This document shows, one piece after another, positions 10,103 to 29,736 of a DNA stretch of 32,000 nucleotides (position 1 is the first letter of the stretch; every line of letters begins with the position of its first letter). Source of the stretch: Pseudoalteromonas tetraodonis (lineage in GTDB: Bacteria > Pseudomonadota > Gammaproteobacteria > Enterobacterales > Alteromonadaceae); assembly GCF_002310835.1 (NCBI RefSeq), contig NZ_CP011041.1, positions 2,070,001 to 2,102,000 of the forward strand, read 5' to 3'. The position numbers were made by a program, and so were the translations under genes. The notes beneath the pieces are model-generated. The model was not told where the DNA came from and did not search any database. It saw only the letters and a list, made by a program, of their open reading frames with translations.

Positions 10103-10807
10103 TTACGCTTGTTGCGCTTTTAAACGTGCTAAACGTGCTACTTGGTGAGTAGACGTTAAGAAAGAATAGATAGGTGCTAAATAACCGCGTTTACGAAGCT
10201 CTAGAAAGTCTGCATCGCTTAGCTCATTTAGTTTTTTCTCATCGATAAGGTAAATACCGTTGATGTCTTTTTTCTCGCCTTTAATATCAACCGTTAGCGT
10301 TTGTGCTACTAGTAATTCTTTATCAGCAAGGAATTTAGTAAACGCATCAGTGACTTGTGAAAACTCAATGAACGATACTAACGCTTCTTTACGACGCTTA
10401 AGGTAATCAGTTTCTTCACCGTTTTCGAATAATGCATTACCCTCTTCTTCACCAACTAATGAGCTCGCTTCGTCAATTACAATACCAAATTGATCTTGCT
10501 CAGGGTGCTTTACTAAACCTAATGGGTAACGAGTCGTTGCCATAGGTGCAAATGCTGCTGTCCATTTGTCGCCATCAACAAATAAGTTTTCACCTGGCTC
10601 TAGGCCAAACATAGCAACCGCTTGAAAAGTACCTGTTTCGTTATTTTTAACAAAAGACATTGGAAACTCATTGGCGATACGCGCAAACTCGTGTGCTACA
10701 ACTGGCACTAAGTGTTGAGTTTTCATAAATTCGATATTGATGCCATTTTTAATTTTAGTGTTGGCATGTTTTTCGTTGTGTAAAGGCTGTACTTGTTGCT
10801 CCGCCAT
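10103..10807 (-). CDS. SapC-family protein (function unknown)
   Basis: The family-typical N-terminal half (HLVPVVAHEFARIANEFPMSFVK...AVAMFGLEPGENLFV...TTRYPLGL) matches SapC. No signal peptide is present. GGAG SD lies 8 nt upstream. Confidence 0.85.
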   Translation of the reverse strand: MAEQQVQPLHNEKHANTKIKNGINIEFMKTQHLVPVVAHEFARIANEFPMSFVKNNETGTFQAVAMFGLEPGENLFVDGDKWTAAFAPMATTRYPLGLVKHPEQDQFGIVIDEASSLVGEEEGNALFENGEETDYLKRRKEALVSFIEFSQVTDAFTKFLADKELLVAQTLTVDIKGEKKDINGIYLIDEKKLNELSDADFLELRKRGYLAPIYSFLTSTHQVARLARLKAQQA

Positions 10808-11013
10808 GTTACTGCTCCGTTATTTTATAAATTTGATTTTTTACTGTTAGTGCCCTAAGGCTAAAGGTTTTGGCAACAAAAAGGAAGTGAAAATTTTGTG
10901 GCAGTTTGTAGGATATTAATTAACAAAAAATTATCGTTGATTATTTCAACAAATAACCAATAAACGCCACTGAAGAAGAAATTCGTAAACACAATGAGCT
11001 CAAAAAGCGCCCT

Positions 11014-11041
11014 TTGACAACGCTGTCTTCGGTGGTATATT
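11014..11041 (+). promoter_or_regulatory. Near-consensus sigma70 promoter for the 2OG-oxygenase-like gene
   Basis: TTGACA (11014-11019), a 16-nt spacer, then TATATT (11036-11041). It lies about 60 nt upstream of ATG 11104. Confidence 0.5.
11015..11028. promoter_or_regulatory. LacI-type operator half-degenerate copy (TGACAACGCTGTCT) overlapping the -35/spacer
   Basis: 12/14 identical to the core of the perfect palindrome at 16103-16118. It keeps the TGnnAnCGnTnnC framework with a central CG. Confidence 0.4.
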
Positions 11042-11103
11042 AATTTTGTGCCTAAATAAAAAGTTCTCACTTAAATAAGCCCATCAAAAATAGACATTAA
11101 ATA

Positions 11104-11814
11104 ATGAAAAATTTAACTGTAAACCCAAACTTAGTAATTAAAAAGTTGATGATCCCAGGCACTAAACTATCAGCCTTCGTTGTAGATGATTTTCTTTTAG
11201 ATACCAATAGTGTAATGAATTTTGCCCATAACATAGCCTATTTTAATCCTATGTTTTCAGACAATTCTTTCTATCCTGGCATTCGCGACAATATGCCACA
11301 ACCGTACTTGAGGTTGCTGCACGCATTTTTTCAAAATGAAATACTGCCTAAAATAGACAATAAAAATTATCAAGAGTCTATTCTTCATAAAAGTTTACTT
11401 TCATTAGTTTCATGTAAACCGGCTAATTTAATTGTCGATCAAAAAGTGCCCCATATCGATTCATGTGATGAAAGAGACTATGCGTTTGTGCATTATTTAT
11501 CTGGTGAGGAACTCGGTGGCACCAGTATTTATAAATACATACCGCAAAACATTATTGAATTTAAAGAGCAACACAAACCACTATTGGCAGATATAGTTAA
11601 CGATGTTAAAAATAACCCTGATGAACATCAAGGCTATTTAGCGGGTACCACTAGCTTGTTTGAGCAGGTATTTAAAATAGATGCTAAATTTAATCGCCTT
11701 GTTATTTACCAAGGTAACTTATTACACAGTGCAAATATTTACTCTGAGCAAAGCTGCTTAGCCGATGCTAAAAAAGGCCGTCTGTCGATAGCCTCTTTTG
11801 CAAGTGTAAGATAG
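11104..11814 (+). CDS. Hypothetical protein with 2OG/Fe(II)-oxygenase-like HxD...H...RxS signature (possibly the DUF6445 family)
   Basis: H117-I-D119 (VPHIDSCD), distal H208 (GNLLHSA), and R226-L-S228 (KKGRLSIASF). Order and spacing are typical of double-stranded beta-helix 2OG oxygenases. There is no signal peptide. By eye the coding sequence is AT-richer than its neighbours. Confidence 0.7.
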   Translation: MKNLTVNPNLVIKKLMIPGTKLSAFVVDDFLLDTNSVMNFAHNIAYFNPMFSDNSFYPGIRDNMPQPYLRLLHAFFQNEILPKIDNKNYQESILHKSLLSLVSCKPANLIVDQKVPHIDSCDERDYAFVHYLSGEELGGTSIYKYIPQNIIEFKEQHKPLLADIVNDVKNNPDEHQGYLAGTTSLFEQVFKIDAKFNRLVIYQGNLLHSANIYSEQSCLADAKKGRLSIASFASVR

Positions 11815-11817
11815 GGC

Positions 11818-13353
11818 TTAGATTGACTGAAGCCCATACTGTTTAATTTTATTTAAAAGCGCTCTGTGATCAGGAAGCTTATTTATTAAATAGTGATCAA
11901 TCTCAGCTCTTTGTTTTAAACGCGCTAAACAGTGTGCCTGTTCTTTATCGGGGCTGTTAGACGCCTTAGTATTGTAATTCATTCCATAAAGTACAAATAA
12001 GAAGTTCTCTAGATAAAACACTTCAAACTGACTAAAAAAATCATCTCTGACTGGGGTAAACTCTTTCCACAAATTAAGTTTTTCTTTTAATGACGTGGAA
12101 ATAGTGTCTTGGTTTTTATTTGCTATCCAAAAAGCTGAATCAGTGCGGTCTGATATACAGTAGTGAAGTTTAATAAAATCAATCACCCGCTCCCATGCAT
12201 ACCCCATAGCATGATTAAAACGCTCTTCTAATTGCTCTAGCTGCGTTGTTGATGATGGGAAGCGCAACGTTAAAAATTTAGCTGAAAAGTCAGTTAATAA
12301 TATTGACGTTGCCTCTAATGGTTCTAAAAAGCCTTGCGCTAAGCCAAGGGCAACACAATTTTTATGCCAAAACTTTTTCCGGTAACCGACCCGCATTGGT
12401 ATTTTTCTGTAGGTAAGATCTTGCTTACTGTCACCTAAATAACGGTCAAGTTTTTCATGTGCCTGTTCATCCGTCATATGGTTATCTGAATAAACAAAAC
12501 CGACTCCACGCCTATTGGTGAGCGCAATATCCCAAATCCAGCCAGCTTGATGAGCGGTGGCAAGTGTATAAGGAGGAATAGCATCATCGGCTTTGGTTGG
12601 TACTTGCACCACTAATGCGCTGTTAATTAATAAACTCTCAGATACATCAACAAAGGGAATCTTTAACGCTTTACTCATAAGTAAAGATTCAAAGCCTGAG
12701 CAGTCAATATAAAAGTCAAACTCAAGCTCTTCATTGTTATCTGTAATAAGTGCAGCAATAGCGCCGTCATCGCCAAGCTTTACCTGTGTAACATGGGTGT
12801 GTATATGCTCTACAGAAAATTTTTCTTTTGCATTACAAGCAAGTAGTTGCGCAAACTTGCCTGCATTAAAATGATACGCGTAAGCCAACTCCCCTTCATA
12901 TTGAGCATTAGTGATATTTTTAGGTGCTAAGCCTGCCTCACAAATAACATGCTGAGAAGATAAGCCCTGCGCATAACTTTGACTTTTCTCTTTGTTATTT
13001 AACCAATAAGAAGTTAAATGCTTGGCATCATAAGAGCTTGGCACATCAAATAAATGATGAAAAAAGTTGCCTTCGCCATGTTTTTTCTTATCCATCCAGT
13101 TAATAAACTTTATTGACTGCTTGAACGTTGCATCACATTGCCTAATAAATTCATCTTCACGAATACCAAAGCTTTTTAGGGTATTCCTAATATCGGGGAC
13201 TGTGCCTTCACCGACACCAATTGGCGGTATATCTGGGGACTCTATTAAAGTAACAGATATACCTTTACGATTGAGCATCTCTTTGCCAATGTGGTTTGCA
13301 GCTAACCAACCGGCTGTTCCACCACCTACAATTGCAACTTTTTTTATATCCAT
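11818..13353 (-). CDS. Flavin-dependent 'tryptophan halogenase' family protein
   Basis: Has the N-terminal FAD fold VAIVGGGTAGWLAA, then GVGEGT, a lysine context ATFKQSIKFINW, GWIWDIAL (WxWxI-A instead of WxWxIP), and GFLEPLEATSI. 511 aa. Confidence 0.85.
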   Translation of the reverse strand: MDIKKVAIVGGGTAGWLAANHIGKEMLNRKGISVTLIESPDIPPIGVGEGTVPDIRNTLKSFGIREDEFIRQCDATFKQSIKFINWMDKKKHGEGNFFHHLFDVPSSYDAKHLTSYWLNNKEKSQSYAQGLSSQHVICEAGLAPKNITNAQYEGELAYAYHFNAGKFAQLLACNAKEKFSVEHIHTHVTQVKLGDDGAIAALITDNNEELEFDFYIDCSGFESLLMSKALKIPFVDVSESLLINSALVVQVPTKADDAIPPYTLATAHQAGWIWDIALTNRRGVGFVYSDNHMTDEQAHEKLDRYLGDSKQDLTYRKIPMRVGYRKKFWHKNCVALGLAQGFLEPLEATSILLTDFSAKFLTLRFPSSTTQLEQLEERFNHAMGYAWERVIDFIKLHYCISDRTDSAFWIANKNQDTISTSLKEKLNLWKEFTPVRDDFFSQFEVFYLENFLFVLYGMNYNTKASNSPDKEQAHCLARLKQRAEIDHYLINKLPDHRALLNKIKQYGLQSI

Positions 13354-13379
13354 AAATCACCAATAAAGTTTAACCTCGT

Positions 13380-13402
13380 AAAAAAGCCCAGCAATGCTGG
13401 GC
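13380..13402 (-). terminator. Hairpin + T-run between the TBDR and halogenase-like genes (terminator/attenuator)
   Basis: On the minus strand GCCCAGC-ATT-GCTGGGC is followed by TTTTTT. It lies 28 nt after the TBDR stop and 26 nt before the halogenase-like start. Confidence 0.6.
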
Positions 13403-13429
13403 CTAGGTTATTTTTACTCATTTAGCGTA

Positions 13430-16048
13430 TTAAAAACGCATTGTTACACCAAGTTTGTAACGTGCTTCACCTTCAAAACTCCACACTGGGAAGTCATTCA
13501 GTAAATCAGGGTTTGGTAATGAGGTAGATGCATCATTGTTACCCAACTGAACGCTGTCTTCCTCTGTTAGGTTAATCCCTTCGAAAGTAACATCTAAGTA
13601 ATCAGTTACAGAGTATGTTGCACTGAAATCTAGCTGTCCGTAGTCTTGATGCGCGCGGTTACCGTACCAACCTGGTGCTTCACGAATAATAAACTCTGAA
13701 CGCCAGTTATATGCTAAACGGGCAGAGAAATCATCATTTTCATAAAAACCAACTACGTTATAGCTGTTTTTAGATGAATCAGAGAATACCCCAACACGGT
13801 CTGGGTAATTCTCTGCTGGTGCTTTCGCATCTGAATAGGTGTAGTTAAATGAATAACCAAAGCCGTTATCGAATGAATCTTGAATTTGGAACTCAATACC
13901 TTCGATTGAACCACCCGTACCATTTGTTGATGAGCTTACTGTCCAACAGTCATATTGCTGAGCACCACACGGTGGCTCGCCGGCATCTGGGTTAGTCGTA
14001 TAAACGGGGATGTCGATACCAATTTGTTGGTTTGTTTGTTGTTGGGTAGAAATAAATGAGCTTACTTCTTTAGTGAAGTAAGTGACGCTTAACATAGCAT
14101 CGTCATCAAAGTACCATTCAACACCAATGTCTGCCTGGAACGCTTTAAATGGGCTTAAACCTACATTACCCGTATTTAACACTTCATTTAAAGGACGGTT
14201 ATCTGTATAACCCGCTAGATTACGCGTTGCAAATAAATCTGCGTAATTAGGGCGAGAGATAACTTGTGCTGCTGAGGTACGTAAGATTAAGTCGTCAGCT
14301 AAGTCCATAACCACGTTTAAGCTTGGTAAGAACTCACTGTAATCGGCTTTGTCTGTAGATAACGTCGAGTCGTAAACACCTTCATCACTTAAATCATAGT
14401 AATCTGACGAAATATCAGTTGATATGTAACGAACACCTAAATTACCGCGAATACCACCGGTGTCAAAATCAGCCATCGCATATAAAGCAAAATTTTCTTC
14501 TTCTATGGTGCCGTATGCTTGTGGACGTGCTGTATAACCTTCTGTCATTGCTAATGAATCAGCAATCATTAGATCCATATCAGGTTCAGGTATTACAAAA
14601 CCACCACCGGCAGTCACGGTACCAGGGTAGTATTCATTAGCATTACGTACAGGTACTAAATCGGCATTCACATTGGCTGCATTACCATCTTGTACAACTT
14701 TGTGATCGGCATATCTTAAGCCCGTTTTAATTGCGGTAATAACACCAAGCTCAACAGGAATTTCAAAGTCTAAATTTAAGTAACTTTCTTCATCTGAATC
14801 AGGGTTATATTCAGGCGCCCAAGTTTGTGGGCTGATGGTATCAGGTAAAATGCTAGCATCGTATGACTGGTTAGCTAAATTAAATCTAGTCACGTCGCCA
14901 GTCATATCAATAGACCCATTTAAGTCGCTATTGTTATTTGCAAACATACCATAGTTTGCCGTTGTTACATCACTGTCTGCGCTTGTTTTACCTACACGAC
15001 CTTTAAAGGTGAATAACTCTGAGTCATATTTCCAATCTAAGTCAACAGTATCAGACTTCATGCTTGCTTTACGCGCCCATGTTTGGAAAAAAGCCGTGCC
15101 ATTGCCGTCGATATTACGCGAAACACAGTTACCTGAGGCGTTCGTTTGTTCACATGAACCATCACCTGGGAATATAATGATTTGCGAGTTAGCATTGTTA
15201 GCATCTAGCTCTAAACTTGTATAAGTTAGACCTAAAACTAGCGAGTCTGATGGCTGATATTGCATAGCTACATTATACGCAGTACGCTCACGAGCTTGCT
15301 GGAAGGTTGTAGGTGCCATACCGCCACTCCAACCACCTGACGATTCAATACCGTTACGTTGATAATCTACTTCTGATAATGAACCCGCAGCTAAGATACC
15401 AAATGTTTCACTATCATTTTTCCAGCTGTACAAGCCAGAAAGCTCAGGATCTGTCTCTTCAGATACTGTACCGTAATCAGCTTTAACACTAGCAAATACA
15501 GTGTTTGCATCTAAATCTAGCGGTTTACGAGTTTTAACAATTACAGTACCGCCGATACCACCTTCAACTAGGTTAGCTTGAGATGATTTATAAACTTCTA
15601 AGCCACCTACTAATTCAGAAGGTAGTAATGAATAATTAAAGCTACGATCGACCGCTTGTTGATCGAACCAGCTAGTTGAGGCAACAGTATGACCGTCAAG
15701 TAATGTGCGTGTTAATTGTGCTGATGCACCACGGATAGATACTTGCTGACCCTGTCCAAATTGACGAGATACACTGACACCAGAAATACGACCAAGAGAT
15801 TCACCTACATCGCCATCAGGAAACTTACCAACGTCTTCAGCTGTTACAACATCAACAACGGCATTTGAAAAACGCTTGCCGTTTAAGTTTTCTTTATTTG
15901 AAGCGCGAATACCCGTAACTTGGATTACTTCAACATCTTCTTGAACTTTAGTTTCATCGGCTGCGAATGCAGCACCAGTGAACCCGGCTCCCATTACTAA
16001 GCCGATATTTACTGCTAATAAGCTTTTTTTAAAATTTTTAGCTAACAC
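13430..16048 (-). CDS. TonB-dependent outer-membrane receptor
   Basis: Has a signal peptide ending AFA, a TonB-box/plug (VEVIQVTGIRAS...), a long beta-barrel with alternating aromatic pattern, and a C-terminal ...GVTMRF. GTG start is preceded by AAGGGGA. Confidence 0.95.
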   Translation of the reverse strand: MLAKNFKKSLLAVNIGLVMGAGFTGAAFAADETKVQEDVEVIQVTGIRASNKENLNGKRFSNAVVDVVTAEDVGKFPDGDVGESLGRISGVSVSRQFGQGQQVSIRGASAQLTRTLLDGHTVASTSWFDQQAVDRSFNYSLLPSELVGGLEVYKSSQANLVEGGIGGTVIVKTRKPLDLDANTVFASVKADYGTVSEETDPELSGLYSWKNDSETFGILAAGSLSEVDYQRNGIESSGGWSGGMAPTTFQQARERTAYNVAMQYQPSDSLVLGLTYTSLELDANNANSQIIIFPGDGSCEQTNASGNCVSRNIDGNGTAFFQTWARKASMKSDTVDLDWKYDSELFTFKGRVGKTSADSDVTTANYGMFANNNSDLNGSIDMTGDVTRFNLANQSYDASILPDTISPQTWAPEYNPDSDEESYLNLDFEIPVELGVITAIKTGLRYADHKVVQDGNAANVNADLVPVRNANEYYPGTVTAGGGFVIPEPDMDLMIADSLAMTEGYTARPQAYGTIEEENFALYAMADFDTGGIRGNLGVRYISTDISSDYYDLSDEGVYDSTLSTDKADYSEFLPSLNVVMDLADDLILRTSAAQVISRPNYADLFATRNLAGYTDNRPLNEVLNTGNVGLSPFKAFQADIGVEWYFDDDAMLSVTYFTKEVSSFISTQQQTNQQIGIDIPVYTTNPDAGEPPCGAQQYDCWTVSSSTNGTGGSIEGIEFQIQDSFDNGFGYSFNYTYSDAKAPAENYPDRVGVFSDSSKNSYNVVGFYENDDFSARLAYNWRSEFIIREAPGWYGNRAHQDYGQLDFSATYSVTDYLDVTFEGINLTEEDSVQLGNNDASTSLPNPDLLNDFPVWSFEGEARYKLGVTMRF

Positions 16049-20696: not shown

Positions 20697-20971
20697 GTAA
20701 ACATCCCCTAATTTATTAATCTATTGATTTAAAGCGCTTTATTTAATTTTTTACGACGCAAAATAACCGAATTTTGTAAAAAGCAAAGCCCAATACTATA
20801 GCTTAAAAAGTCTAATTTGCGTTATTTTTATAAGCTTCGATGCAGATAATAGCGCAATTTTTTACTTTTGACACCGGTATCATAAAATTAAAAATTGAAT
20901 TTAACAACTGATCAGCCCTTCTCTTTAATGAAGATTTTATTAATTTCTAACTGATCCAAATTAAAGCGAGC

Positions 20972-21000
20972 AAAAAAAAGGCCGACAAATGTCGGCCTTT
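20972..21000 (-). terminator. Rho-independent terminator of the desulfurase-MBL-rhodanese gene
   Basis: On the minus strand AAAGGCCGAC-ATTT-GTCGGCCTTT is followed by a T8 run. It lies 15 nt after the stop codon. Confidence 0.8.
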
Positions 21001-21015
21001 CCTCTAAATAAACAA

Positions 21016-23271
21016 TTAACCGGTTAACGCTAAACCACCCGATAAGTTATAAACACTGCTGTAACCAAGCTCAGTCAAATTTGCTGCCGCAATTTTTGAA
21101 CGGTTACCACTGCGACACACTAAAATATACTGGTTGTTTTTGTCCAATTGGCCTTGCGTAAGTGCATGAGCCATTCGACTTAAAGGAATATTTAAGGTTT
21201 TAGCTATGGGTACGTTTAGCAATGCGCTTAAATTATTAGCGCCGTGTTCATAAGGTTCTCGGGTATCAATTAAATACGCATTGCCCTCTACCAGTATTTC
21301 TTTTGCTTGGTTAAAACTTAATTGCGAAGTTTCTATAGCAGGCTTAGCATTAACATAACCACAGAGCGTGTTGGCTTGTGTGTGTTGTTGTAAATCTGCT
21401 TGCTGTTTTTGTGCGGCAAATTCAGCGTCATCAATATCACCTTTAATTAGCTTTTGTAACAATGGCGTTTGCTGCTGTTGAACAGCCCAGTTCATTGCAA
21501 AGCACTGTTGGTAATCATGCCCTGAACACACCACACTTTGCGGATTAAGCTCTGCTGCTAACATCGTCAAAGAATGCGCCATTTTCATTGCATCCCCGCC
21601 ATCAAGCGCGGTATTTCCAAGCCCTGCAGGTAAAATTAAATCACCGCAAAAGCAATACTGAACATCTCCATTATTCGCTTTTAATAAATAACTCACGCTA
21701 TCTTGGCTATGCCCTGGTGTGGCTAGCTTTTCGAGTACGTGAGTGGTTAATTGCAATGTGTCGCTATTCGTTGGCCAGCCTAATTTATCAACCTCTCCAG
21801 CGACTAAGTATTCTTTAAGTGCGCTGCGCATTAAATCAAGTGCGCAGTGACGTTCTTGATGCTCATGCGTATTTAAAATAGCGGTAATAGTTAAATTTTG
21901 CGTAGTTACTATTTTTTCAAAGCGAGGGATCAGTTCAATAATCGGATCGATAATAAATGCATGTTGATCATCTGTTACATACAACCAACTACATGCACCT
22001 TGGTGTCTAAATTGGGTAAGCCCTAAAGCACATACTTCTTGCAAAGGAAAACTGCTATCAGAAATCACTAAACAGTTAGCTTGTAATACCGTTTTAAGCG
22101 CTCTAATTTGTTCACATGCATCATCTATTTGCGCCATCGTAGCAGCAGGGCCAAATGACAAACGAATAGCGTTTTCACTTTGCCAGTGTGAGGCTCCCAT
22201 CGCATCAAGCACAAAGCTCTGCGTAGCTCCCGTGCTGCATGCAGAGCCACCGCTGACCCTAATACCTGCAGCGTCAAATAAATCAATAACTTCTTTACTA
22301 GTTAAATCGTTAACCGCAAAATTAAGCGTTGTGGGCACAGAGCAGGCAAAGTCATGATTAAAGGTAATACTTCCAAAAGTATCAACTAAGGCGCTATGGA
22401 GTTTATCCCGATACAAGTTAAGTACATCTATTGATTTAAAAGTCTCGTCTTGTTTATCTAGCAGCAAACTAAACAGCTTATTGAGCCCAGCTATACCAGG
22501 CAGGTTTTCTGTACCAGAGCGCATGCCACTTTCTTGGCCGCCACCGGCTATAAAAGGCGTGTATGGGCTGCCTTGACGAATATACAATAAACCTATGCCT
22601 TTAGGTGCATAAAGTTTATGCCCTGAAAAAGGCGCATAATCAATCGTTGTTTCACTTAGGTTGAGCTGTTGTTTGCCAAGCGCTTGTACACAATCAACCA
22701 TCCAAGTGACTTGGCTATTACGACTACGAATCACCTTTTCTATGGCGCTTAGATCTTGGTAAACACCGGTTTCATTATTAACGGCCATCGTGCAAATCAT
22801 CAAAGCGTCATCAATATGCTGAGCAATAAAGTCTAAATCTAAAATACCATCACGATTAACCGGAATAGCAATAATATCAGCGTTAATCTCAAGCACTGTA
22901 TTCCAATGCTTTAGCGTATTAGGCACCGCTTTATGCTCAGTTGCCCCATACAATAAAACGGGGTTTGGCTTTGTATGGTGTTTTGCATTAATGAGCGTCG
23001 ATACGATGGCGGTTTGAATCCCCTCAGTGGCACCGGAGGTGAATAAAATATCACCTTGCTGCGCGCCAATGACGGTACGGGCTTTTTGCCTAGTTTGTTC
23101 TAATAAGTGCTTGGCTTGAATGCCGGTTATATGAGGACTTGAGGGATTACCAAAACAAATTTGCATAGCATGGCACACCACCTCTGCAATACATGGCAAT
23201 ACAGGTGTGGTCGCATTTGCATCGAGATAAACTTGAGCTTTGGGTTCATCTGGCAATAAAAACTCTGACAT
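21016..23271 (-). CDS. Tri-domain fusion: class-V cysteine desulfurase (NifS/IscS-like) + metallo-beta-lactamase-fold persulfide-dioxygenase-like domain + rhodanese
   Basis: aa 1-390: LDANATTP, FTSGATEG, PLP-Lys SGHK219, and the catalytic loop SGGSAC345S. aa ~425-600: THEHQERH (469-475), TPGH521S, CGD544, SGH585DY (ETHE1/glyoxalase-II-like spacing). aa ~655-751: rhodanese with the active-site loop C719RSGNRS. It is one uninterrupted ORF. Confidence 0.85.
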   Translation of the reverse strand: MSEFLLPDEPKAQVYLDANATTPVLPCIAEVVCHAMQICFGNPSSPHITGIQAKHLLEQTRQKARTVIGAQQGDILFTSGATEGIQTAIVSTLINAKHHTKPNPVLLYGATEHKAVPNTLKHWNTVLEINADIIAIPVNRDGILDLDFIAQHIDDALMICTMAVNNETGVYQDLSAIEKVIRSRNSQVTWMVDCVQALGKQQLNLSETTIDYAPFSGHKLYAPKGIGLLYIRQGSPYTPFIAGGGQESGMRSGTENLPGIAGLNKLFSLLLDKQDETFKSIDVLNLYRDKLHSALVDTFGSITFNHDFACSVPTTLNFAVNDLTSKEVIDLFDAAGIRVSGGSACSTGATQSFVLDAMGASHWQSENAIRLSFGPAATMAQIDDACEQIRALKTVLQANCLVISDSSFPLQEVCALGLTQFRHQGACSWLYVTDDQHAFIIDPIIELIPRFEKIVTTQNLTITAILNTHEHQERHCALDLMRSALKEYLVAGEVDKLGWPTNSDTLQLTTHVLEKLATPGHSQDSVSYLLKANNGDVQYCFCGDLILPAGLGNTALDGGDAMKMAHSLTMLAAELNPQSVVCSGHDYQQCFAMNWAVQQQQTPLLQKLIKGDIDDAEFAAQKQQADLQQHTQANTLCGYVNAKPAIETSQLSFNQAKEILVEGNAYLIDTREPYEHGANNLSALLNVPIAKTLNIPLSRMAHALTQGQLDKNNQYILVCRSGNRSKIAAANLTELGYSSVYNLSGGLALTG

Positions 23272-23378
23272 TAAAAACGCACCTTATTACTAAAAAATAT
23301 ATCTTATTCCCAATAGTACATAGTTTTGACAGGAATGAATAATAATCTTTAGTAATTAAAGTGCGTTTACTATACCTT

Positions 23379-24455
23379 TTAGTTACCGAGCTCTTGCGCG
23401 AGTTCTTCGTGTTTGGATGACCAGGCATTAATAAGTGCTTTGACTAATGATGCTAATGGAATGGCAAAAAACACTCCCCAAAAACCCCATAGCCCACCAA
23501 AAAATAGTACCGCAACAATAATAAATACCGGATTTAAATCAACCGCTTCAGAGAACAATAAAGGCACCAATACGTTGCCATCGAGCGCTTGAATAATGCC
23601 GTATATAATTAAAACGGTCCAAAATTGAGTTTCTAAACCAAACTGAAACAGCGCTACTGCGGCCACTGGTATAGTTACTAACGCTGCGCCCACAAACGGA
23701 ATAAGCACCGAAAAGCCTACGAGAACGCCTAAAAGCGCGGCGTACCGTAAGTCCAGTATGGTAAAAGCAATAAACGACACAGAACCAACAATTAAAATTT
23801 CAAATACTTTGCCACGAATATAATTCATGATTTGCTGATTCATTTCATGCCACACTTGTAAAATTAAGCGGCGTTGGCGTGGGATCATTTTAGCAATGCT
23901 GGCACTGAGCTCTACTTTATCTTTGAGCATAAAAAACACCAGTAGCGGTACCAAAATAAGGTAAATTAACCATGCTACAGCGTCTTTTAATGAATTAAGC
24001 GACGCAGACAATACCACTTGGCCAAAGTCGAGAACTTTGGTTTCAACGGTTACTACAATCGATTGTACTTGCTCTGCGCTAATAAGGCTGGGGTATTTAT
24101 CAGGCAGATCGAGTAAAAACGATTTACCTTGTTCGACCATATGCGGTGTTTCTTGGACTAGGTTACTGCTTTGCTGCCAAAGCACAGGGCCTATAACCAA
24201 TATTAAAGTGAGCATAATGCCAATAAATATCAGCATTACTATGCTGGTGGCAGTAAAACGCTTAAGGCCAAACCGTTCTAAGTGAACCACAGGCCAATCT
24301 AATAAATAAGCTATGATCAGTGCCACTAACACAGGCACAATTAATGGGCCAAAAAAATACAACATGGCAACCAGTGCCAACAATAAAAAAAGTAAAGTGA
24401 CTGAATCAGGATCAGAAAACTTTTTTTCATACCATGCTTTTACATATTCAAACAC
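23379..24455 (-). CDS. perM: AI-2E (UPF0118/PerM) family transporter
   Basis: A polytopic membrane protein whose N-terminus (FEYVKAWYEKKFSDPDSVTLLFLL) resembles E. coli PerM. It keeps the E. coli-like divergent neighbourhood with bepA-yfgD. GTG start overlaps the upstream gene. Confidence 0.8.
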   Translation of the reverse strand: MFEYVKAWYEKKFSDPDSVTLLFLLLALVAMLYFFGPLIVPVLVALIIAYLLDWPVVHLERFGLKRFTATSIVMLIFIGIMLTLILVIGPVLWQQSSNLVQETPHMVEQGKSFLLDLPDKYPSLISAEQVQSIVVTVETKVLDFGQVVLSASLNSLKDAVAWLIYLILVPLLVFFMLKDKVELSASIAKMIPRQRRLILQVWHEMNQQIMNYIRGKVFEILIVGSVSFIAFTILDLRYAALLGVLVGFSVLIPFVGAALVTIPVAAVALFQFGLETQFWTVLIIYGIIQALDGNVLVPLLFSEAVDLNPVFIIVAVLFFGGLWGFWGVFFAIPLASLVKALINAWSSKHEELAQELGN

Positions 24456-24666
24456 GTAACGGCTCCACTAATAACAACCCCTGTTGTTTATTTAACTTGT
24501 AATAATACGCTTTTTTTTGCAAATATCGTTCAATATCATCAGTGTTTTGTTCTTGTGAGATATTAAAGGTAATTGCTTGTTTTAACGATATTGCATCACG
24601 CAGCCCTAATTTAAACTGAATAAATTGCTGTGGGCATTTATAAGCGCGTAAATTTAGCTCTAGCAT
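24448..24666 (-). CDS. Small TusA/SirA-like protein (putative sulfur-carrier fold)
   Basis: 72 aa. LNLRAYKC11PQQFIQFK resembles the TusA LGLRCPEPVMMVRK motif (conserved Cys-Pro, helix, Lys). The stop overlaps the perM GTG (GTGTTTGA). The assignment is by eye only. Confidence 0.5.
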   Translation of the reverse strand: MLELNLRAYKCPQQFIQFKLGLRDAISLKQAITFNISQEQNTDDIERYLQKKAYYYKLNKQQGLLLVEPLRV

Positions 24667-24809
24667 ACTCGTTTCGCTACCTATTCACATTAATAATAAG
24701 TCCTATAACAGGGCCAATTGAGATTAACCGCAGTTAAATTTAACTTTTTCTTAAAACAACCTCTGCAATGGTTTATCCTTATAACATCGTTAGCTATCAG
24801 GATACGTTA

Positions 24810-25460
24810 ATGCCTAATTCGCATAATAAAGCGCAATTGCCTAGCAATCCAACTCTCAAAGAAATTAATTGGTTTAAAAAGCAAATTAATTGGGGGGAGC
24901 TGCCGCATTTTTATCATTTAGTGGCTTCGTCGGTAAGTGAATGTGAAAGTATTTTAGATCACGGATTTGATAATGCCATTAAGCGTATTATCGACAAACG
25001 CAATTGGAATTTAGAAGCGCTGGGAATAGACCCCAACGAGCTTTATGAAAAAGAAAGCAATAACAAACCACGAATTTCACTGCATCAAGTGTTTACCGAG
25101 CGTGGTTTTGAATTACAAGCCTTCCCTTTTTCTAATGATACCGCCATCGATAGGTACGCACGACATGATGAGACAATGGAGTTTAGATTATGGGATCCAT
25201 TGACGATGAAAACCGTTATTCGCATTAATCAGTTACATAAATTCATTGGCTTTTACTTAGACCAAGGCGATGAGGCAGATAAAGCGCTTATATTACATTC
25301 TCACAAAGTGGTTCATAAAATTATTGCTTTTTTACAAACTCAATTGAACATTGTTAAGGTTGATGGGGTCACAATAAAGGCGTTTTATCAACTATGTGAA
25401 AAGGACAGCCGTTTATACACAGATGATCCTTCAAGTGCTAGTGCCCCTGATAAAAAATAA
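24810..25460 (+). CDS. Hypothetical cytoplasmic protein, no recognisable motif
   Basis: The ORF is open from 24768. ATG 24810 has an AGGA SD 7 nt upstream, whereas 24768 has none. It ends 12 nt before bepA. No TM segment or signal peptide is present. Confidence 0.6.
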   Translation: MPNSHNKAQLPSNPTLKEINWFKKQINWGELPHFYHLVASSVSECESILDHGFDNAIKRIIDKRNWNLEALGIDPNELYEKESNNKPRISLHQVFTERGFELQAFPFSNDTAIDRYARHDETMEFRLWDPLTMKTVIRINQLHKFIGFYLDQGDEADKALILHSHKVVHKIIAFLQTQLNIVKVDGVTIKAFYQLCEKDSRLYTDDPSSASAPDKK

Positions 25461-25472
25461 ACAAGGAATATA

Positions 25473-26930
25473 ATGCAGCTAAAATCAGCCTTTATCACTT
25501 TATGCAGTGCAGCGCTTACATTTAGCCTACTGATAAGTGAGCCGTTAAAGGCACAAACCAATCTTCAACTGCCCGACTTAGGCACTTCAGCCTTACAAGC
25601 ATTGCCAATTGAAAAAGAAAAAGCGATTGGTGAAGTGATGATGATGCAGATCAGAGGCTCATCGCCTTTGATTAACGATCCGGTGCTTGATGAATACCTA
25701 ACAACTTTAGGTAGAAAGTTAGTTGCTAACGCCAATGATGTACGTTTTGGGTTTTCATTCTTTTGGTTAAATAATCCCGAAATCAATGCATTTGCATTTT
25801 ATGGCGGCCATGTTGGTGTACACACCGGATTAATAGCCCAAGCCGATAACGAGAGTCAATTTGCATCGGTTCTTGGCCATGAAATTGCACACGTTACACA
25901 GCGCCACTTAGCAAGGCGCATTCAGCAGCAACAAGATAATAGCGGGCTTACCATTGCCGGCATGATTGCTGGTATTTTAGCCGCGGTTGTAGCCCCTGAT
26001 GCCGGTATGGCTATTATTTCAGCCAGCCAAACACAATCAGCTTTCAGTCAGCTGACACATAGCCGTTCTGCCGAGCAAGAAGCAGACAGAATGGGCATGC
26101 AAACCCTCAACAACGCAGGGTTTGATGCCAGAGCATCAAGTGAATTTTTAACTAAACTTGCCGCACAAATTCGTTATAAATATAAACCACCGGCGTTTTT
26201 ACTCACTCACCCTCTTCCTGAAAGTCGTGTGTCAGATGTTCGCCTTCGCGCCGAGCAATACCCTAAACGCCAGGTAAGCTCGAGCCTTGATTTTGACTTA
26301 GCAAAAAGCCGAGTCCTGGCGCGTTACGATAACAAACCCGAAAACGCAGAAGCCTTATTTAGAAAGTTAATGCGCGAAAACACCTATAACAACGTAGCAT
26401 TACAGTACGGCTTAGCTATTAGTTTGCTTGATCAAAAAAAGACGGATGAAGCACAGCCTATACTTGATAAGTTACTAGCAGACGATCCTAAAAACTTATT
26501 TTATATTGATACCAAAACAGATTTACTCATTGCACAAAAAAAAGCCGCAGAGGCTGTTAGTTACTTAAGCGAGCTAAATAATTATCGGCCAAATAACCAA
26601 GTGATCACCTTAAATTACGCCAACGCGGCACTAGAGGCTGAGCAATATGAGTTAGCTGAAAATATATTAAAGTCGTTTTTACTGGAAAAACCCGATCACA
26701 GTTTAGGCAAACAGCTTTTAACTGACGCCTACAAAAAACAAGAAAAATTGGCGGCCTACCATGAAGCCAATGCCGATGTATTATCTCAGTATGGTGCGTA
26801 TTTAAAAGCGGCCGATGAAATACAAAAAGCGCTTAATTTTGTAGAGCCAAGTGAAAATGTTAAGCAACAGCGCTTAAAAGCGTTACTCACACAGTATCGG
26901 TTATTGCAAAAAGAGCTTGCGAGGCTTTAA
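25473..26930 (+). CDS. bepA: Periplasmic M48-family beta-barrel assembly-enhancing protease with C-terminal TPR region
   Basis: Has a signal peptide, the HEIAH zinc motif (GHEIAHVTQRH), a downstream E...ADR, and a TPR-like C-terminal half. Synteny with perM and yfgD/arsC matches E. coli. Confidence 0.85.
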   Translation: MQLKSAFITLCSAALTFSLLISEPLKAQTNLQLPDLGTSALQALPIEKEKAIGEVMMMQIRGSSPLINDPVLDEYLTTLGRKLVANANDVRFGFSFFWLNNPEINAFAFYGGHVGVHTGLIAQADNESQFASVLGHEIAHVTQRHLARRIQQQQDNSGLTIAGMIAGILAAVVAPDAGMAIISASQTQSAFSQLTHSRSAEQEADRMGMQTLNNAGFDARASSEFLTKLAAQIRYKYKPPAFLLTHPLPESRVSDVRLRAEQYPKRQVSSSLDFDLAKSRVLARYDNKPENAEALFRKLMRENTYNNVALQYGLAISLLDQKKTDEAQPILDKLLADDPKNLFYIDTKTDLLIAQKKAAEAVSYLSELNNYRPNNQVITLNYANAALEAEQYELAENILKSFLLEKPDHSLGKQLLTDAYKKQEKLAAYHEANADVLSQYGAYLKAADEIQKALNFVEPSENVKQQRLKALLTQYRLLQKELARL

Positions 26931-26984
26931 GTCTTTAGTGAGTTCACCTAAAATAGCCACAATTTATACTTTGGATGTATTTTT

Positions 26985-27332
26985 ATGTCAGTTACTATTT
27001 ATCATAATCCGCGTTGTTCAAAATCACGCGAAACCCTTAACCTATTACAAAGTAAAAACATTGAACCGAGTGTTGTTGAATACTTAAAAACACCCCTTTC
27101 TCATGAGCAAATTAGTACCTTAGTTTCTCAACTTGGGTTTAATTCGGCACGAGATTTGATGCGCATCAAAGAAGAGCAGTACAAAGCGCTTAATTTAAAA
27201 GATGAAAACAGCGAGTCAGTGCTTATTGATGCCATGGTCAATCACCCAAAACTAATTGAGCGCCCTATTGTAGTAAATAACAATAAAGCCGCCCTAGGTC
27301 GCCCGCCTGAAAACGTATTAAGCGTTCTATAA
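26985..27332 (+). CDS. arsC: ArsC-family (glutaredoxin-type) arsenate reductase / YfgD-like
   Basis: Carries IYHNPRC11SKSRETL and conserved Arg positions (LMRIKE, IERPIV, LGRPPE). 115 aa. Confidence 0.85.
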   Translation: MSVTIYHNPRCSKSRETLNLLQSKNIEPSVVEYLKTPLSHEQISTLVSQLGFNSARDLMRIKEEQYKALNLKDENSESVLIDAMVNHPKLIERPIVVNNNKAALGRPPENVLSVL

Positions 27333-27886
27333 TGAGCACAACCATCGTGGTGCTGTATCACTCAAGCCATGGCTCAGTAGAGGCTATGGCGCATGAGATT
27401 GCAGAGTCAATAGAGCAACAAGGCGCAACCGCATTACTGCGTACTTTTGTGGCCAAAAACCCGCATGACATTGTGATCAGTAAAGATGATTTAGTTGCCT
27501 GCGACGGGCTTGCATTTGGTACGCCGACCCGCTTTGGCATGATGGCCTCACAAGCAAAAACGTTTTGGGAAACCACCAGCGATCTTTGGCTCAAAGGCCA
27601 ACTTATTGATAAACCTGCCTGTGTGTTTTCATCATCAAGCAGTATGCATGGTGGCAATGAAGCAACCCTACTCAATTTGTCATTGCCTTTGTTACACCAT
27701 GGGATGATGTTGATGGGCGTACCTTACGATGTACCTGAGTTGCTCGGCACCGAAACAGGAGGAACACCTTATGGCGCCTCTCACGTTGCAGGTAGCAATA
27801 ACAGCTCAACCCTGAGTAAGGATGAAATTAAAATATGTCAAAGCGTAGGAAAACGCCTGACTCAAGTTGCGAGTAAACTTAAATGA
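27332..27886 (+). CDS. Flavodoxin-fold NAD(P)H:quinone oxidoreductase (WrbA-like)
   Basis: The flavodoxin-like N-terminus is IVVLYHSSHGSVEAMA; also FGTPTRFGMM and GGNE. The start shares one base with the arsC stop (TAATG). Confidence 0.8.
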   Translation: MSTTIVVLYHSSHGSVEAMAHEIAESIEQQGATALLRTFVAKNPHDIVISKDDLVACDGLAFGTPTRFGMMASQAKTFWETTSDLWLKGQLIDKPACVFSSSSSMHGGNEATLLNLSLPLLHHGMMLMGVPYDVPELLGTETGGTPYGASHVAGSNNSSTLSKDEIKICQSVGKRLTQVASKLK

Positions 27887-28335
27887 TTCAAGCAAGCGAG
27901 CCTGCTAAAAAACCGATTACCATTAAATTTCAGCGCCTAGCCTTATTTGGTTATATTGGTCTGCTTATTTTAATGCCGTTATGGATGTTTGTATTAGCCC
28001 CTAGAGACGGCCACAGTAACACCTTTCTTTTCTTAGTGTATGTATTGCCACTATTACTGCCATTAAAAGGCATATTACAAGATAAAACCTACACCTATGC
28101 GTGGGCTAATTTTATTGTTATGTTTTACTTTATTCATGGCTTTACATTGCTGTGGGTCGCACAAGATGAGCTTATATGGGTATTGCTTGAGTTATTATTT
28201 GCCTCATCTATGTTTATTGGCTGTACTTATTATGCGCGCCATAGAGGGCAAGAACTTGGGCTTAAAATTCGCAAGCTTAAAGATGAGCTCGCTGAAGAAA
28301 AAGCCGCACACGAGCACGATAAAAACAATCCGTAA
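27883..28335 (+). CDS. Small integral membrane protein (DUF2069-like)
   Basis: Has 3-4 hydrophobic helices and the motif LPLLLPLKGILQDKTYTYAWANF. It overlaps the wrbA-like stop in an ATGA arrangement. Confidence 0.6.
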   Translation: MIQASEPAKKPITIKFQRLALFGYIGLLILMPLWMFVLAPRDGHSNTFLFLVYVLPLLLPLKGILQDKTYTYAWANFIVMFYFIHGFTLLWVAQDELIWVLLELLFASSMFIGCTYYARHRGQELGLKIRKLKDELAEEKAAHEHDKNNP

Positions 28336-28398: not shown

Positions 28399-29736
28399 TT
28401 AAACTAACTCGCTTAAAGCTGCCAGCCCCACAATACAGGCTAAACCTAGTTGTGCAACAAGACTAAAAACAGACATCATTCGTATTAAAAACAATCCCCA
28501 TGGGTGTTTTACATGCGGATACAATGAGCAACGCTTTAAGTTCGTTGCAAAGAAAAAACACACCACCGCCGTCATGGTCATAAAAAGAGTAAGCTCACTT
28601 TTTATAGTGATGTTTTCATCAAAAAAGAAAAATAACTGTAGCGGTAATAATAAAGCCACAACCGCATGTAGCACATGCACCTTTTTAATTCGCTCTAGCT
28701 GCCCCTCTGGCGATAACTCTTTAATACCAAAGTCACGCTCAAGGCACTTAACTAAGTTGCTGGCTTTTATACTAACCGCTAATCGGTAACAACTTAACCC
28801 CTCGTTATTTCGCGCTCTAAAGTCATACCCTGCTTTGAGCAGTAAAATCATTAACGATTCGTTTTTACTTATCACCGCGTAATGCAGCGCCGTATTACCT
28901 TGGCCGTCTACCGCTTTTTTATCTTGGTACTGCAGGAGTGTTTCTACTAAATTTACGTAGCCTTTTTCTGCCGCCCACATAAATGCTGTTTTATTATCTT
29001 CATCGGTTAAGGTGCCCGTGGCGCCTTGCTCAATAAAGCGCATTGCCATGGTTTGCTTAGCTTTTTTCTTGTTTAAATGCGCAAGTAAGGCATTTTCTAA
29101 AAGCACAATAGAGTCAACATCAGGAGACACCTGAGTTAACAAAGTAAAGTAATCTTTGCCAGCAGCCACTTTTTCGCTGGTCAGCTCTGCTAAGTGGTCA
29201 ATATCAGCAATCGACTGGGGAATATGCGCACTTAAACGCTCTCTAAAATCGACCTCTTTCCAAATAGCTAAGGTATCTGCAGCAGAGAGCTTTGCACCTT
29301 GCTCTAGCGCATGCTCTATCAGAGTAAAAAAGCGTTTACTAAAAAATAAGCTATTTAAAGAAAGTGGCGTTTCAATGTTATTTTGTGCCGACACACTTGC
29401 ATACTTTTCAAGTCGCTGACACAGCATTAGCACAATATTTTCTATGCTGTAATCATTGGCAAAATAATGCTCTTTCAGTGCAGCAATATACTCTTGTGCG
29501 TTTTCATCATATTCAGAAATATGCTGAAAATAACACTCTTCAAATGGCTCTAAGGGGGTTAACCAGGTTAAATAATAAATTGGGGGTAAAACAGTAGTGC
29601 ATACACCATTATCTTCTTCAGTAGAGCGACAGGCGGGCCAAGCTTCTAAAGCATCTAAAATGAAGGCACCGTTTTGTTCAACCAGCCCTTTGACCAGTAA
29701 CGGGTATTCCTTTGGCCAAATTAGTACATTTTCCAT
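28399..29736 (-). CDS. Ankyrin-repeat protein with C-terminal transmembrane anchor
   Basis: About three ANK repeats (DNKTAFMWAAEKGYVNLVETLL / DGQGNTALHYAVISKNESLMILLLKAGYD / NNEGLSCYRLAV...). These follow a ~230-aa N-terminal region with no recognisable motif. They are followed by 3-4 hydrophobic helices (VLHAVVALLLPLQLFFFF..., LFMTMTAVVCFFFA..., LFLIRMMSVFSLVAQLGLACIVGLAAL). Confidence 0.8.
   Translation of the reverse strand: MENVLIWPKEYPLLVKGLVEQNGAFILDALEAWPACRSTEEDNGVCTTVLPPIYYLTWLTPLEPFEECYFQHISEYDENAQEYIAALKEHYFANDYSIENIVLMLCQRLEKYASVSAQNNIETPLSLNSLFFSKRFFTLIEHALEQGAKLSAADTLAIWKEVDFRERLSAHIPQSIADIDHLAELTSEKVAAGKDYFTLLTQVSPDVDSIVLLENALLAHLNKKKAKQTMAMRFIEQGATGTLTDEDNKTAFMWAAEKGYVNLVETLLQYQDKKAVDGQGNTALHYAVISKNESLMILLLKAGYDFRARNNEGLSCYRLAVSIKASNLVKCLERDFGIKELSPEGQLERIKKVHVLHAVVALLLPLQLFFFFDENITIKSELTLFMTMTAVVCFFFATNLKRCSLYPHVKHPWGLFLIRMMSVFSLVAQLGLACIVGLAALSELV

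Follow-up and report, generated by a model that had tools for sequence, protein, structure and literature searches.

A three-domain protein of Pseudoalteromonas tetraodonis joining a cysteine desulfurase, a persulfide dioxygenase-like domain and a rhodanese: a candidate for on-enzyme processing of cysteine sulfur

Results

Three sulfur-handling domains on one chain

A 32,000-nt stretch of the Pseudoalteromonas tetraodonis genome (contig NZ_CP011041.1, positions 2,070,001 to 2,102,000 of the forward strand) was analysed as a whole and is called the window, and coordinates below are window positions unless another locus is named. It encodes a 751-amino-acid (aa) protein, the query, in which a cysteine desulfurase, a persulfide dioxygenase (PDO)-like metallo-beta-lactamase (MBL) domain and a rhodanese are joined. 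The gene occupies 21016..23271 on the minus strand, with the ATG codon at 23269-23271 and the TAA codon at 21016-21018. We tentatively propose, at somewhat less than an even chance, that this one polypeptide strips the sulfur from L-cysteine, handles it on the enzyme, and relays and oxidises it to sulfite/thiosulfate. We infer every catalytic step of this route from the domain identities, the residue conservation, the genomic contexts of relatives and the kinship to two fusion proteins, the cysteine desulfurase-rhodanese CD-Rhd of Pseudorhodoferax and the PDO-rhodanese BpPRF of Burkholderia (Paraburkholderia) phytofirmans. The three-domain form joins these two known fusion types, CD-Rhd and PDO-Rhd.

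The initial annotation had described a single uninterrupted open reading frame (ORF) without giving its strand, and this ORF was recovered on the minus strand. All of the motifs listed at that time were found at the same residues, namely SGHK (K219), GGSAC (C345), TPGH (H521), CGD (D544), SGHDY (H585) and C719RSGNRS. The presence of three domains on one chain was borne out by Pfam matches to Aminotran_5, Lactamase_B and Rhodanese. A 91%-identical protein of 751 aa was found in an independent Pseudoalteromonas genome. The genus contains more than 100 full-length orthologue clusters (741-759 aa, 55-91% identity), and the same unbroken architecture occurs in many other genera and phyla. Therefore, the frame is not an assembly error. 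The full-length orthologues also rule out that a frameshift in sequencing or assembly merged two or three genes, and the chance of such an artefact is negligible.

The cysteine desulfurase domain

The N-terminal domain (aa 12-395; 22087..23238, minus strand) was identified as a type I (NifS/IscS-like) cysteine desulfurase by Pfam, NCBIfam, PDB and Foldseek searches and by conservation. Aminotran_5 (PF00266) covers residues 14-383 with an E-value of 3e-56 and 191 bits against a cut-off of 21.5. The top PDB match is the Thermotoga NifS-like protein 1ECX, with 2e-60 by sequence and an E-value of 1.6e-31 (TMt 0.87) in Foldseek. The key residues are H113, D193, Q196, the pyridoxal phosphate (PLP) lysine K219 (22615-22617), the mobile-loop cysteine C345 (22237-22239) and R370. 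They are all invariant in 118 orthologue clusters, and the desulfurase is the most conserved stretch of the 751-aa protein in these clusters. The long flexible cysteine loop (S-G-S-A-C-S/T), which discriminates type I from type II/SufS enzymes, is present as VSGGSAC345STG and aligns to 1ECX and IscS. In the structural model, the predicted local distance difference test (pLDDT) score of residues 342-365 is below 50. The predicted flexibility or disorder of this loop fits the swinging loop of type I desulfurases. The desulfurase is connected to the MBL domain by a flexible linker (aa 396-415; 22027..22086, minus strand), which is less conserved than the desulfurase and has pLDDT below 50 at model residues 399-413.

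The type I fold and the matches to NifS, IscS, DndA and selenocysteine-lyase models would suit a biosynthetic sulfur or selenium donor, that is, an IscS/NifS paralogue for Fe-S clusters, tRNA thiolation, molybdopterin or another thio-cofactor. Sulfur-relay pairs of this kind are known in E. coli as IscS-TusA and IscS-ThiI(rhodanese). They share with the query a type I desulfurase, a swinging cysteine loop and an acceptor of the rhodanese/TusA type, and a TusA-like ORF lies near the query gene. In addition, a 66-aa gene of the IscX/Fe-S_assembly family (PF04384) is located directly downstream of the three-domain gene in Thalassotalea crassostreae (L001 8498-8698). However, this neighbour was seen once, in one lineage only. 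The partners of the E. coli relays are separate proteins devoted to tRNA and cofactor thiolation, whereas the query carries a PDO-like domain and is not an IscS orthologue. The NCBIfam equivalog scores all fall far under their cut-offs (NifS 279 against 530.75 bits, IscS 222 against 643, DndA 224 against 480). Among the genes adjoining the query ORF in the window, and among those recurring beside relatives, there is no isc, suf, thi, moa, dnd or sel gene. Also, all fused desulfurase domains form one clade apart from the stand-alone NifS/IscS proteins in a neighbour-joining (NJ) tree. A role as a biosynthetic donor is regarded as highly improbable. Orthology to IscS, NifS, DndA, SufS or CsdA was ruled out by the same equivalog scores, and isc, suf and dnd neighbours were not found.

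The PDO-like and rhodanese domains

The middle domain, a PDO-like MBL fold with C-terminal helices, extends over aa 416-645 (21337..22026, minus strand) as judged by phmmer against the PDB, Foldseek and conservation. With phmmer, the C-terminal half of the protein matched MxPDO 4YSB (7e-18), BpPRF (1e-13), human ETHE1 (1e-11) and the human glyoxalase II GloB (1.6e-7). BpPRF was aligned over residues 32-362 of 373, including the catalytic cysteine of its rhodanese. Foldseek with the full-length model returned desulfurase matches only, and therefore a second model of residues 405-751 was made (pLDDT 90, pTM 0.90). The best matches of this model were BpPRF (5VE3/4/5, E 2e-18), followed in order by the MBL-rhodanese fusions 3TP9 and 3R2U, the PDOs (TMt 0.72-0.76) and glyoxalase II (about 0.55). 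A glyoxalase II identity was rejected, as GloB, the top NCBIfam model for the middle domain, scores 66 bits against a cut-off of 200.8 and the PDOs are closer by sequence and structure. The putative Fe triad consists of H469 (21865-21867), H521 (21709-21711) and D544 (21640-21642), which align to the matching residues of 4YSB and BpPRF. Further residues of the site are H471, E473, R474, N553, H585-D586-Y587 and C637-G638 (21358-21363), the last pair belonging to a C-terminal 'AN..CG' motif. Across 30 diverse members, D442, H469, H471, PGH521, GD544, HDY585-587 and C637-G638 are invariant.

The rhodanese closes the chain (aa 646-749; 21025..21336, minus strand) and was assigned by Pfam, conservation and the BpPRF alignment. 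Rhodanese PF00581 covers residues 654-747 with an E-value of 1.4e-10 and 42 bits against a cut-off of 22.2. Its loop reads C719-R-S-G-N-R-S, with C719 at 21115-21117, and C719, R720, G722 and R724 are invariant in the 118 clusters.

Comparison with known fusion proteins

CD-Rhd of Pseudorhodoferax sp. Leaf274 (WP_056898193.1) is a PLP homodimer whose desulfurase rate exceeds all others reported so far (Selles et al. 2022, PMC8931425). It has thiosulfate sulfurtransferase activity, its efficient cysteine-driven persulfidation of roGFP2 needs the rhodanese Cys466, and the intramolecular transfer of persulfide from the desulfurase cysteine to the rhodanese cysteine was shown biochemically (PMC8931425). 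Its catalytic cysteines are Cys334 and Cys466, and the enzyme is used in the CyReB sensor (PMC12319549). The two-domain proteins of Pseudorhodoferax Leaf267 and LjRoot39 served as same-genus proxies for the Leaf274 sequence. The Leaf267 protein is 51% identical to the query desulfurase over 392 aa (375 bits), and its desulfurase cysteine is also at position 334. CD-Rhd and the query have a desulfurase of the same subfamily at the N-terminus and a rhodanese at the C-terminus, with the loop CRSGRRS in CD-Rhd against CRSGNRS in the query. On the other hand, CD-Rhd has no middle domain and about 130 residues between its catalytic cysteines, whereas 374 residues, with the PDO-like domain of about 230 residues among them, lie between those of the query. 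A three-domain protein of 750 aa, with 42% identity to the query over the full length, is also found in Pseudorhodoferax. In the NJ tree, which was calculated without bootstrap, CD-Rhd, the sole tested relative, nests among the three-domain betaproteobacterial proteins, and it seems to descend from a three-domain form by loss of the middle domain.

BpPRF (5VE3/5VE4/5VE5) is the best structural match and aligns to the C-terminal 350 residues of the query. The 2-His-1-Asp positions, HDY, the 'AN..CG' motif and the rhodanese loop CRxGxRS are common to both. In contrast, BpPRF lacks a desulfurase and has HVHADH and the Arg of GRTDF (R142) where the query has HEHQER and Asn553. The structural alignment gives about 20% identity, and the predicted domain orientation differs (TM 0.52, root-mean-square deviation 16 Å), which may be model uncertainty. 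The similarity of the C-terminal half to BpPRF over its full length would agree with a processor of thiosulfate or external persulfide, acting in sulfur assimilation or sulfide detoxification as proposed for BpPRF and CstB, in which the rhodanese and PDO domains do the main work and the desulfurase is an accessory source or sink of persulfide. The Pseudorhodoferax CD-Rhd also takes thiosulfate as a donor (PMC8931425). However, it prefers cysteine about tenfold and its thiosulfate-driven transfer is slow (PMC8931425, PMC12319549). The supposed accessory is the best conserved part of the protein, and no sqr or sulfate/thiosulfate-assimilation gene adjoins the ORF in the window or recurs close to relatives. 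Such a role is considered very improbable.

CstB of S. aureus is another PDO-rhodanese, which converts persulfides to thiosulfate. A Cys-Gly on its mobile loop is the substrate of the Fe site and is shuttled to the rhodanese cysteine (PMC12934615). CstB and the query are alike in missing most of the glutathione-binding features. CstB, a type III PDO, is a weaker match (its S. aureus homologue 3R2U, 5e-9 by sequence and 3e-13 by Foldseek). Unlike the query, it retains the conserved Arg, lacks a desulfurase and obtains its persulfide from outside. The ETHE1-type PDOs (human ETHE1 4CHL, Myxococcus 4YSB and Arabidopsis 2GCU) have the fold and the putative Fe triad in common with the query, but they are separate proteins using glutathione persulfide, and their D-H dyad and Arg are missing from the query.

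Distribution and classes of the family

Among 1.84 billion representative proteins, an exhaustive search found about 75 clusters (50% identity) that score higher than ordinary NifS/IscS proteins, mostly of 600-930 aa. More than 120 further full-length three-domain clusters were found with a profile of canonical members, and Legionellales, Kangiellaceae, Rheinheimera, Chromatiaceae and Planctomycetota are among their sources. A scan of one genome per species gave at least 468 relatives, and the best 80 of these were taken for analysis of their loci. Gammaproteobacterial loci are from Pseudoalteromonas, Shewanella, Colwellia, Thalassotalea, Psychrobium, Marinobacter, Rheinheimera, Alkalimonas, Idiomarina and Lysobacterales. 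Betaproteobacterial ones are from Roseateles/Pelomonas, Comamonas, Duganella, Janthinobacterium and Massilia, and the remaining loci are from Planctomycetota, Verrucomicrobiota and Oligoflexia. The homologues of Thalassotalea and Colwellia show 49% identity to the query. The initial annotation knew of no characterised example of this architecture. No paper on a three-domain protein was found in the searched literature, which omits most subscription-journal papers; the architecture itself, however, is common and occurs in hundreds of species of several phyla. The sources annotate these proteins in generic terms only.

The members can be divided into four groups by the state of the middle region. 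Group A has a canonical PDO site (HxHxDH, PGH, GRT(D/N)F and HDY) and includes proteins of Rheinheimera, Shewanella, some Pseudoalteromonas, Roseateles, Planctomycetota and Verrucomicrobiota. Group B has a partly remodelled site and comprises the query type and proteins of some Thalassotalea, Colwellia and Alkalimonas. In group C, the middle region is similar in length or shorter and is devoid of MBL motifs (Janthinobacterium, Duganella, Idiomarina, P. rubra and the 675-aa protein of P. luteoviolacea S4054). The fourth group is formed by the two-domain CD-Rhd proteins of about 500-545 aa. The desulfurase lysine and cysteine and the rhodanese cysteine are retained in nearly all full-length members. 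In the NJ tree of desulfurase domains, groups A, B and C and the two-domain forms are interleaved within the fused clade. Therefore, the PDO domain seems to have decayed or been deleted repeatedly. In the full-length tree, the query falls in a subfamily with Rheinheimera proteins that have a canonical site, Alkalimonas and Thalassotalea proteins with a partly remodelled one, and the dead-site proteins of Idiomarina and P. rubra. Distinct from it is another Alteromonadales subfamily, with fully canonical sites, which is found in some Pseudoalteromonas, Colwellia and Thalassotalea. Colwellia and Thalassotalea have members of both. The canonical gene found in another genomic context in some Pseudoalteromonas (L005, L008, L010, L024 and L027; HGHADH, GRTN and CRSGSRS) groups with those of Shewanella, Colwellia and Marinobacter. 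The same three activities are also found in a permuted order in P0221, a 768-aa protein on a 142-kb metagenomic/NCBI contig, with Lactamase_B at 8-170 (canonical HTHADH), Rhodanese at 267-357 and Aminotran_5 at 372-750. Since its desulfurase groups with the stand-alone NifS/IscS proteins, P0221 is an independent fusion.

State of the PDO-like site in the query

Several observations weigh against an oxidation step in the query. The Lactamase_B match scores 24.3 bits, slightly over its cut-off of 22.7. Motif 1 of the site is T468-H469-E-H471-Q-E473-R474-H475, i.e. HxHxER instead of the canonical HxHxDH, and the Arg of the PDO motif 'GRTDF' is replaced by Asn553 (GLGN553TAL). Both changes are absent from the initial annotation. 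In the ETHE1/glyoxalase-II-like MBL core described there, H521, D544 and H585 are present and PDOs are the closest matches, but three positions canonical in every characterised PDO are changed. In the family, the PDO site or the whole domain is lost in some 35 clusters (50% identity), in the P. rubra clade and in the two-domain forms, with the desulfurase and rhodanese kept, and therefore dioxygenation is dispensable for the core function. By the same losses, the conserved core of the family is the path from desulfurase to rhodanese, not the dioxygenase. The trees behind the grouping are NJ trees calculated without bootstrap. In the window, no TauE, SQR, sulfite-oxidising or cysteine-import gene adjoins the ORF. 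Finally, the synonymous divergence (dS) is saturated for all pairs (at least 2, or undefined), so the omega of about 0.1-0.2 is rough and relative non-synonymous divergence (dN) was used.

The main alternative, though on the whole unlikely, is that the PDO-like domain is no longer a dioxygenase in the lineage of the query. The desulfurase would then pass sulfane sulfur to the rhodanese, which would hand it to a protein or small thiol, and the TusA-like protein encoded two genes upstream is a candidate acceptor. The PDO-like domain would serve as a spacer or scaffold, as a regulatory module sensing metal or O2, or in a changed chemistry. The repeated loss of the PDO site with the catalytic residues of the other two domains kept is consistent with this explanation, and so are the three positions at which the query differs from canonical PDOs and the lower conservation of the MBL domain than of the desulfurase. 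Moreover, the two-domain CD-Rhd works well as a transpersulfidase without any PDO domain (PMC8931425).

However, the pattern of conservation argues for a site that is still in use. The putative Fe triad, H471, HDY and C637-G638 are kept in 110 of 118 query-type clusters and are lost only together. H471, H521, D544, H585 and C637 are all present in the 110 and all lost in the same eight, which are the P. rubra clade and one other cluster. This all-or-none loss is what selection on a single functional site would produce, and metal ligands would be needless in a mere spacer. The non-synonymous divergence of the MBL domain is 0.31-0.41, about 2-2.5 times the desulfurase value and equal to that of the intact and active rhodanese (0.28-0.37).

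The changed positions follow a pattern too. Of the 118 query-type clusters, 77 have E and 29 have D at position 473, 96 have R at position 474, and 94 have Asn at position 553, while canonical members of the wider family retain HxHxDH. The Arg of BpPRF, R142, is the sole feature stabilising glutathione (GSH) that is common to all crystallised PDOs (PMC12934615). R142 was assigned to the Arg of 'GRTDF' through this paper and a 20-residue numbering offset in 5VE3, and its human ETHE1 counterpart is R163. Among the 110 clusters with a living site, 109 have exactly one basic residue, at either 474 (21850-21852) or 553 (21613-21615). R/K474 is combined with N/S/A553 in 100 clusters and R553 with Q/H/D474 in nine, and neither is found in one cluster. 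The distribution points to a shift of the active-site Arg, out of GRTDF and into the place of the former second-metal His, in which the basic charge was relocated rather than lost. The mutual exclusion of 474 and 553 may stem from just two or three evolutionary events. From these patterns, the PDO-like site of the query is probably functional but remodelled. Because Arg474 is at the second-site His position and Asn553 replaces the usual substrate Arg, its substrate probably binds in another way than glutathione persulfide does in ETHE1 or BpPRF.

Terminator, leader and upstream genes

The three-domain gene had been credited with a strong terminator of its own, and a Rho-independent hairpin with a U-run was indeed found 12 nt 3' of the stop codon (20971..21006, minus strand). 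The hairpin, GAGGAAAGGCCGAC-AUUU-GUCGGCCUUUUUUUU, has 16 bp and is followed by the U-run. Its folding energy is -22.3 kcal/mol (z = -5.6), and none of 200 shuffled sequences folds as well. The genes downstream of it in the window are pgi, zwf and pgl.

The gene is preceded by a 107-nt intergenic leader (23272..23378, minus strand), in which folding and alignment revealed an inverted repeat, AAACGCAC...GTGCGTTTTT, that is conserved and stops 3 nt short of the ATG. The leader folds at -29.6 kcal/mol (z = -4.6). It has long invariant blocks in six Pseudoalteromonas species, whereas the coding regions are saturated at synonymous sites and the proteins are only about 70% identical. The pairs AAACGCAC/GTGCGTTT and ACTAA/TTAGT are about 55-75 nt apart and end with TTTTT just before the ATG, and the inverted repeat overlies the likely ribosome-binding site. 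This conservation suggests a regulatory element belonging to the three-domain gene. Both arms are invariant and show no covariation, and the element may be an RNA structure or a protein operator. Rfam gave no meaningful match in 20900-24800, and a promoter and terminator scan found no promoter in the leader, although the same scan missed the terminator.

Upstream on the same strand is the gene of a 358-aa permease of the AI-2E/PerM family (23379..24455, minus strand), a possible operon partner. Its start is overlapped by 8 nt by a 72-aa TusA-like ORF (24448..24666, minus strand). This small protein has the motif [FY]-[KQ]-C-P-Q-[QL]-F-[IV]-Q-F-K with an invariant Cys11, so it carries C-P-Q-Q/L against C-P-x-P of the TusA family. 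The order of tusA-like, perM and three-domain genes is syntenic in all seven query-type Pseudoalteromonas loci, including the dead-site P. rubra, which would suit a relay that ends on a TusA-like acceptor and has no use for oxidation. The orthologues of the ORF match Pfam TusA in seven of seven cases (best E 2.8e-7). However, the window copy itself is weak at 18 bits against a cut-off of 28.6, and its profile search of the PDB gave no sequence match. A jackhmmer search with an approximate E. coli TusA seed gave no match in the loci of relatives. The 72-aa protein is, tentatively, a candidate persulfide carrier. The YeeD/YeeE pair for thiosulfate uptake resembles this coupling of a TusA-like protein to an AI-2E permease, and by analogy the two may form a carrier/transporter pair for sulfur compounds.

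Divergent from perM, the plus strand at 24768-28335 encodes an unassigned 230-aa ORF, BepA, an ArsC-family reductase, a WrbA-type NAD(P)H:quinone oxidoreductase and DUF2069. BepA, an M48 protease with TPR, scores 660 bits against a cut-off of 570. This perM / bepA / arsC-family neighbourhood is the same as in E. coli, an indication that the three-domain gene joined a syntenic block of older origin.

Genomic contexts of relatives

Clustering of the neighbours across 75 loci showed mostly lineage-specific synteny. A TauE/SafE-family membrane protein gene adjoins the three-domain gene at a distance of 17-229 bp in five loci of three phyla (L003, L080, L021, L034 and L005), which are from Adhaeretor, one Planctomycetaceae metagenome-assembled genome (MAG), two Verrucomicrobiales MAGs and Pseudoalteromonas sp. 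S2755. This family is named for the export of sulfite and sulfonate. About 29 betaproteobacterial loci and that of Adhaeretor have a divergent regulator gene of the Lrp/AsnC type upstream. Neither such a regulator gene nor a TauE/SafE gene is associated with the query gene in the window. Such regulators typically sense amino acids, and the cysteine-responsive CyuR/DecR of E. coli is of the same type. In Adhaeretor, the TauE/SafE gene is placed between the regulator gene and the three-domain gene. The TauE/SafE neighbours, the Lrp/AsnC regulators and the permuted fusion P0221 give indirect support to a route from cysteine through persulfide to sulfite/thiosulfate. An upstream ORF ('family 0') that had looked like a family-wide operon partner was rejected as an antisense ORF-calling artefact over the Lrp/AsnC gene in high-GC DNA.

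Two other parts of the window were recorded. The first, 10103-16048, encodes SapC (10103-10807), DUF6445 (11104-11814), a tryptophan-halogenase-family flavoprotein (11818-13353) and a TonB-dependent receptor (13430-16048), a set common in the substrate-uptake loci of marine Alteromonadales. The second, 28399-29736 on the minus strand, encodes a 445-aa ankyrin-repeat protein (Ank_2, 1.8e-12), and such repeats are uncommon in free-living bacteria.

Discussion

In the proposed route from cysteine to sulfite/thiosulfate, the PLP-dependent desulfurase would at first turn cysteine into alanine and leave a persulfide on C345, as suggested by the intact residues and the tested relative. Second, the persulfide would be passed from C345 to C719 of the rhodanese, a transfer that was shown for the Pseudorhodoferax CD-Rhd. 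Third, the PDO-like domain, with a predicted mononuclear Fe(II) on H469, H521 and D544, might oxidise a small-thiol or protein-bound persulfide with O2 to sulfite. For a protein-bound cysteine persulfide as a PDO substrate, and for the shuttling of a loop to the rhodanese, CstB provides a precedent (PMC12934615). Fourth, the rhodanese persulfide would react with sulfite to give thiosulfate, as in BpPRF and CstB. The net result would be the conversion of cysteine sulfur to sulfite/thiosulfate, with alanine as the other product and without free H2S, in aerobic cysteine catabolism or in the detoxification or control of sulfane sulfur.

A more specific form of this route can be imagined, although it is improbable as a whole. 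The protein would be a glutathione-independent 'cysteine-sulfur oxidase', in which the protein-bound persulfide of C345 is dioxygenated at the Fe site, either directly or through C637-G638. This Cys-Gly pair would be a built-in mimic of glutathione like C201-G202 of CstB, and the persulfide on C719 would resolve the S-sulfonate and release thiosulfate. With the Arg relocated from 553 to 474, the pocket would take a shape suited to a substrate borne by the protein. The translationally coupled TusA-like protein and AI-2E permease would then be a previously unrecognised pair of product carrier and exporter.

Cysteine in excess is toxic, and free sulfide poisons respiration. The safe disposal of cysteine sulfur by aerobic heterotrophic bacteria is only partly understood. 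In plant mitochondria, a sulfurtransferase together with ETHE1 converts cysteine-derived persulfide to sulfite/thiosulfate, and that persulfide comes from 3-mercaptopyruvate, not from a desulfurase. If the proposed route is true, the three-domain protein would be a compact, one-protein way from cysteine to alanine and sulfite/thiosulfate without free H2S, and a bacterial counterpart of the multi-protein pathways of plants and animals. Members of the family are common in bacteria of the sea and of soil, so the family could matter for the turnover of organic sulfur. Its PDO sites range from canonical through remodelled to dead, and this natural series ends with loss of the domain. This series bears on the role in the cell of the highly active CD-Rhd, which is already a cysteine biosensor, on the action of PDOs on protein-bound persulfides, and on how a persulfide travels between domains.

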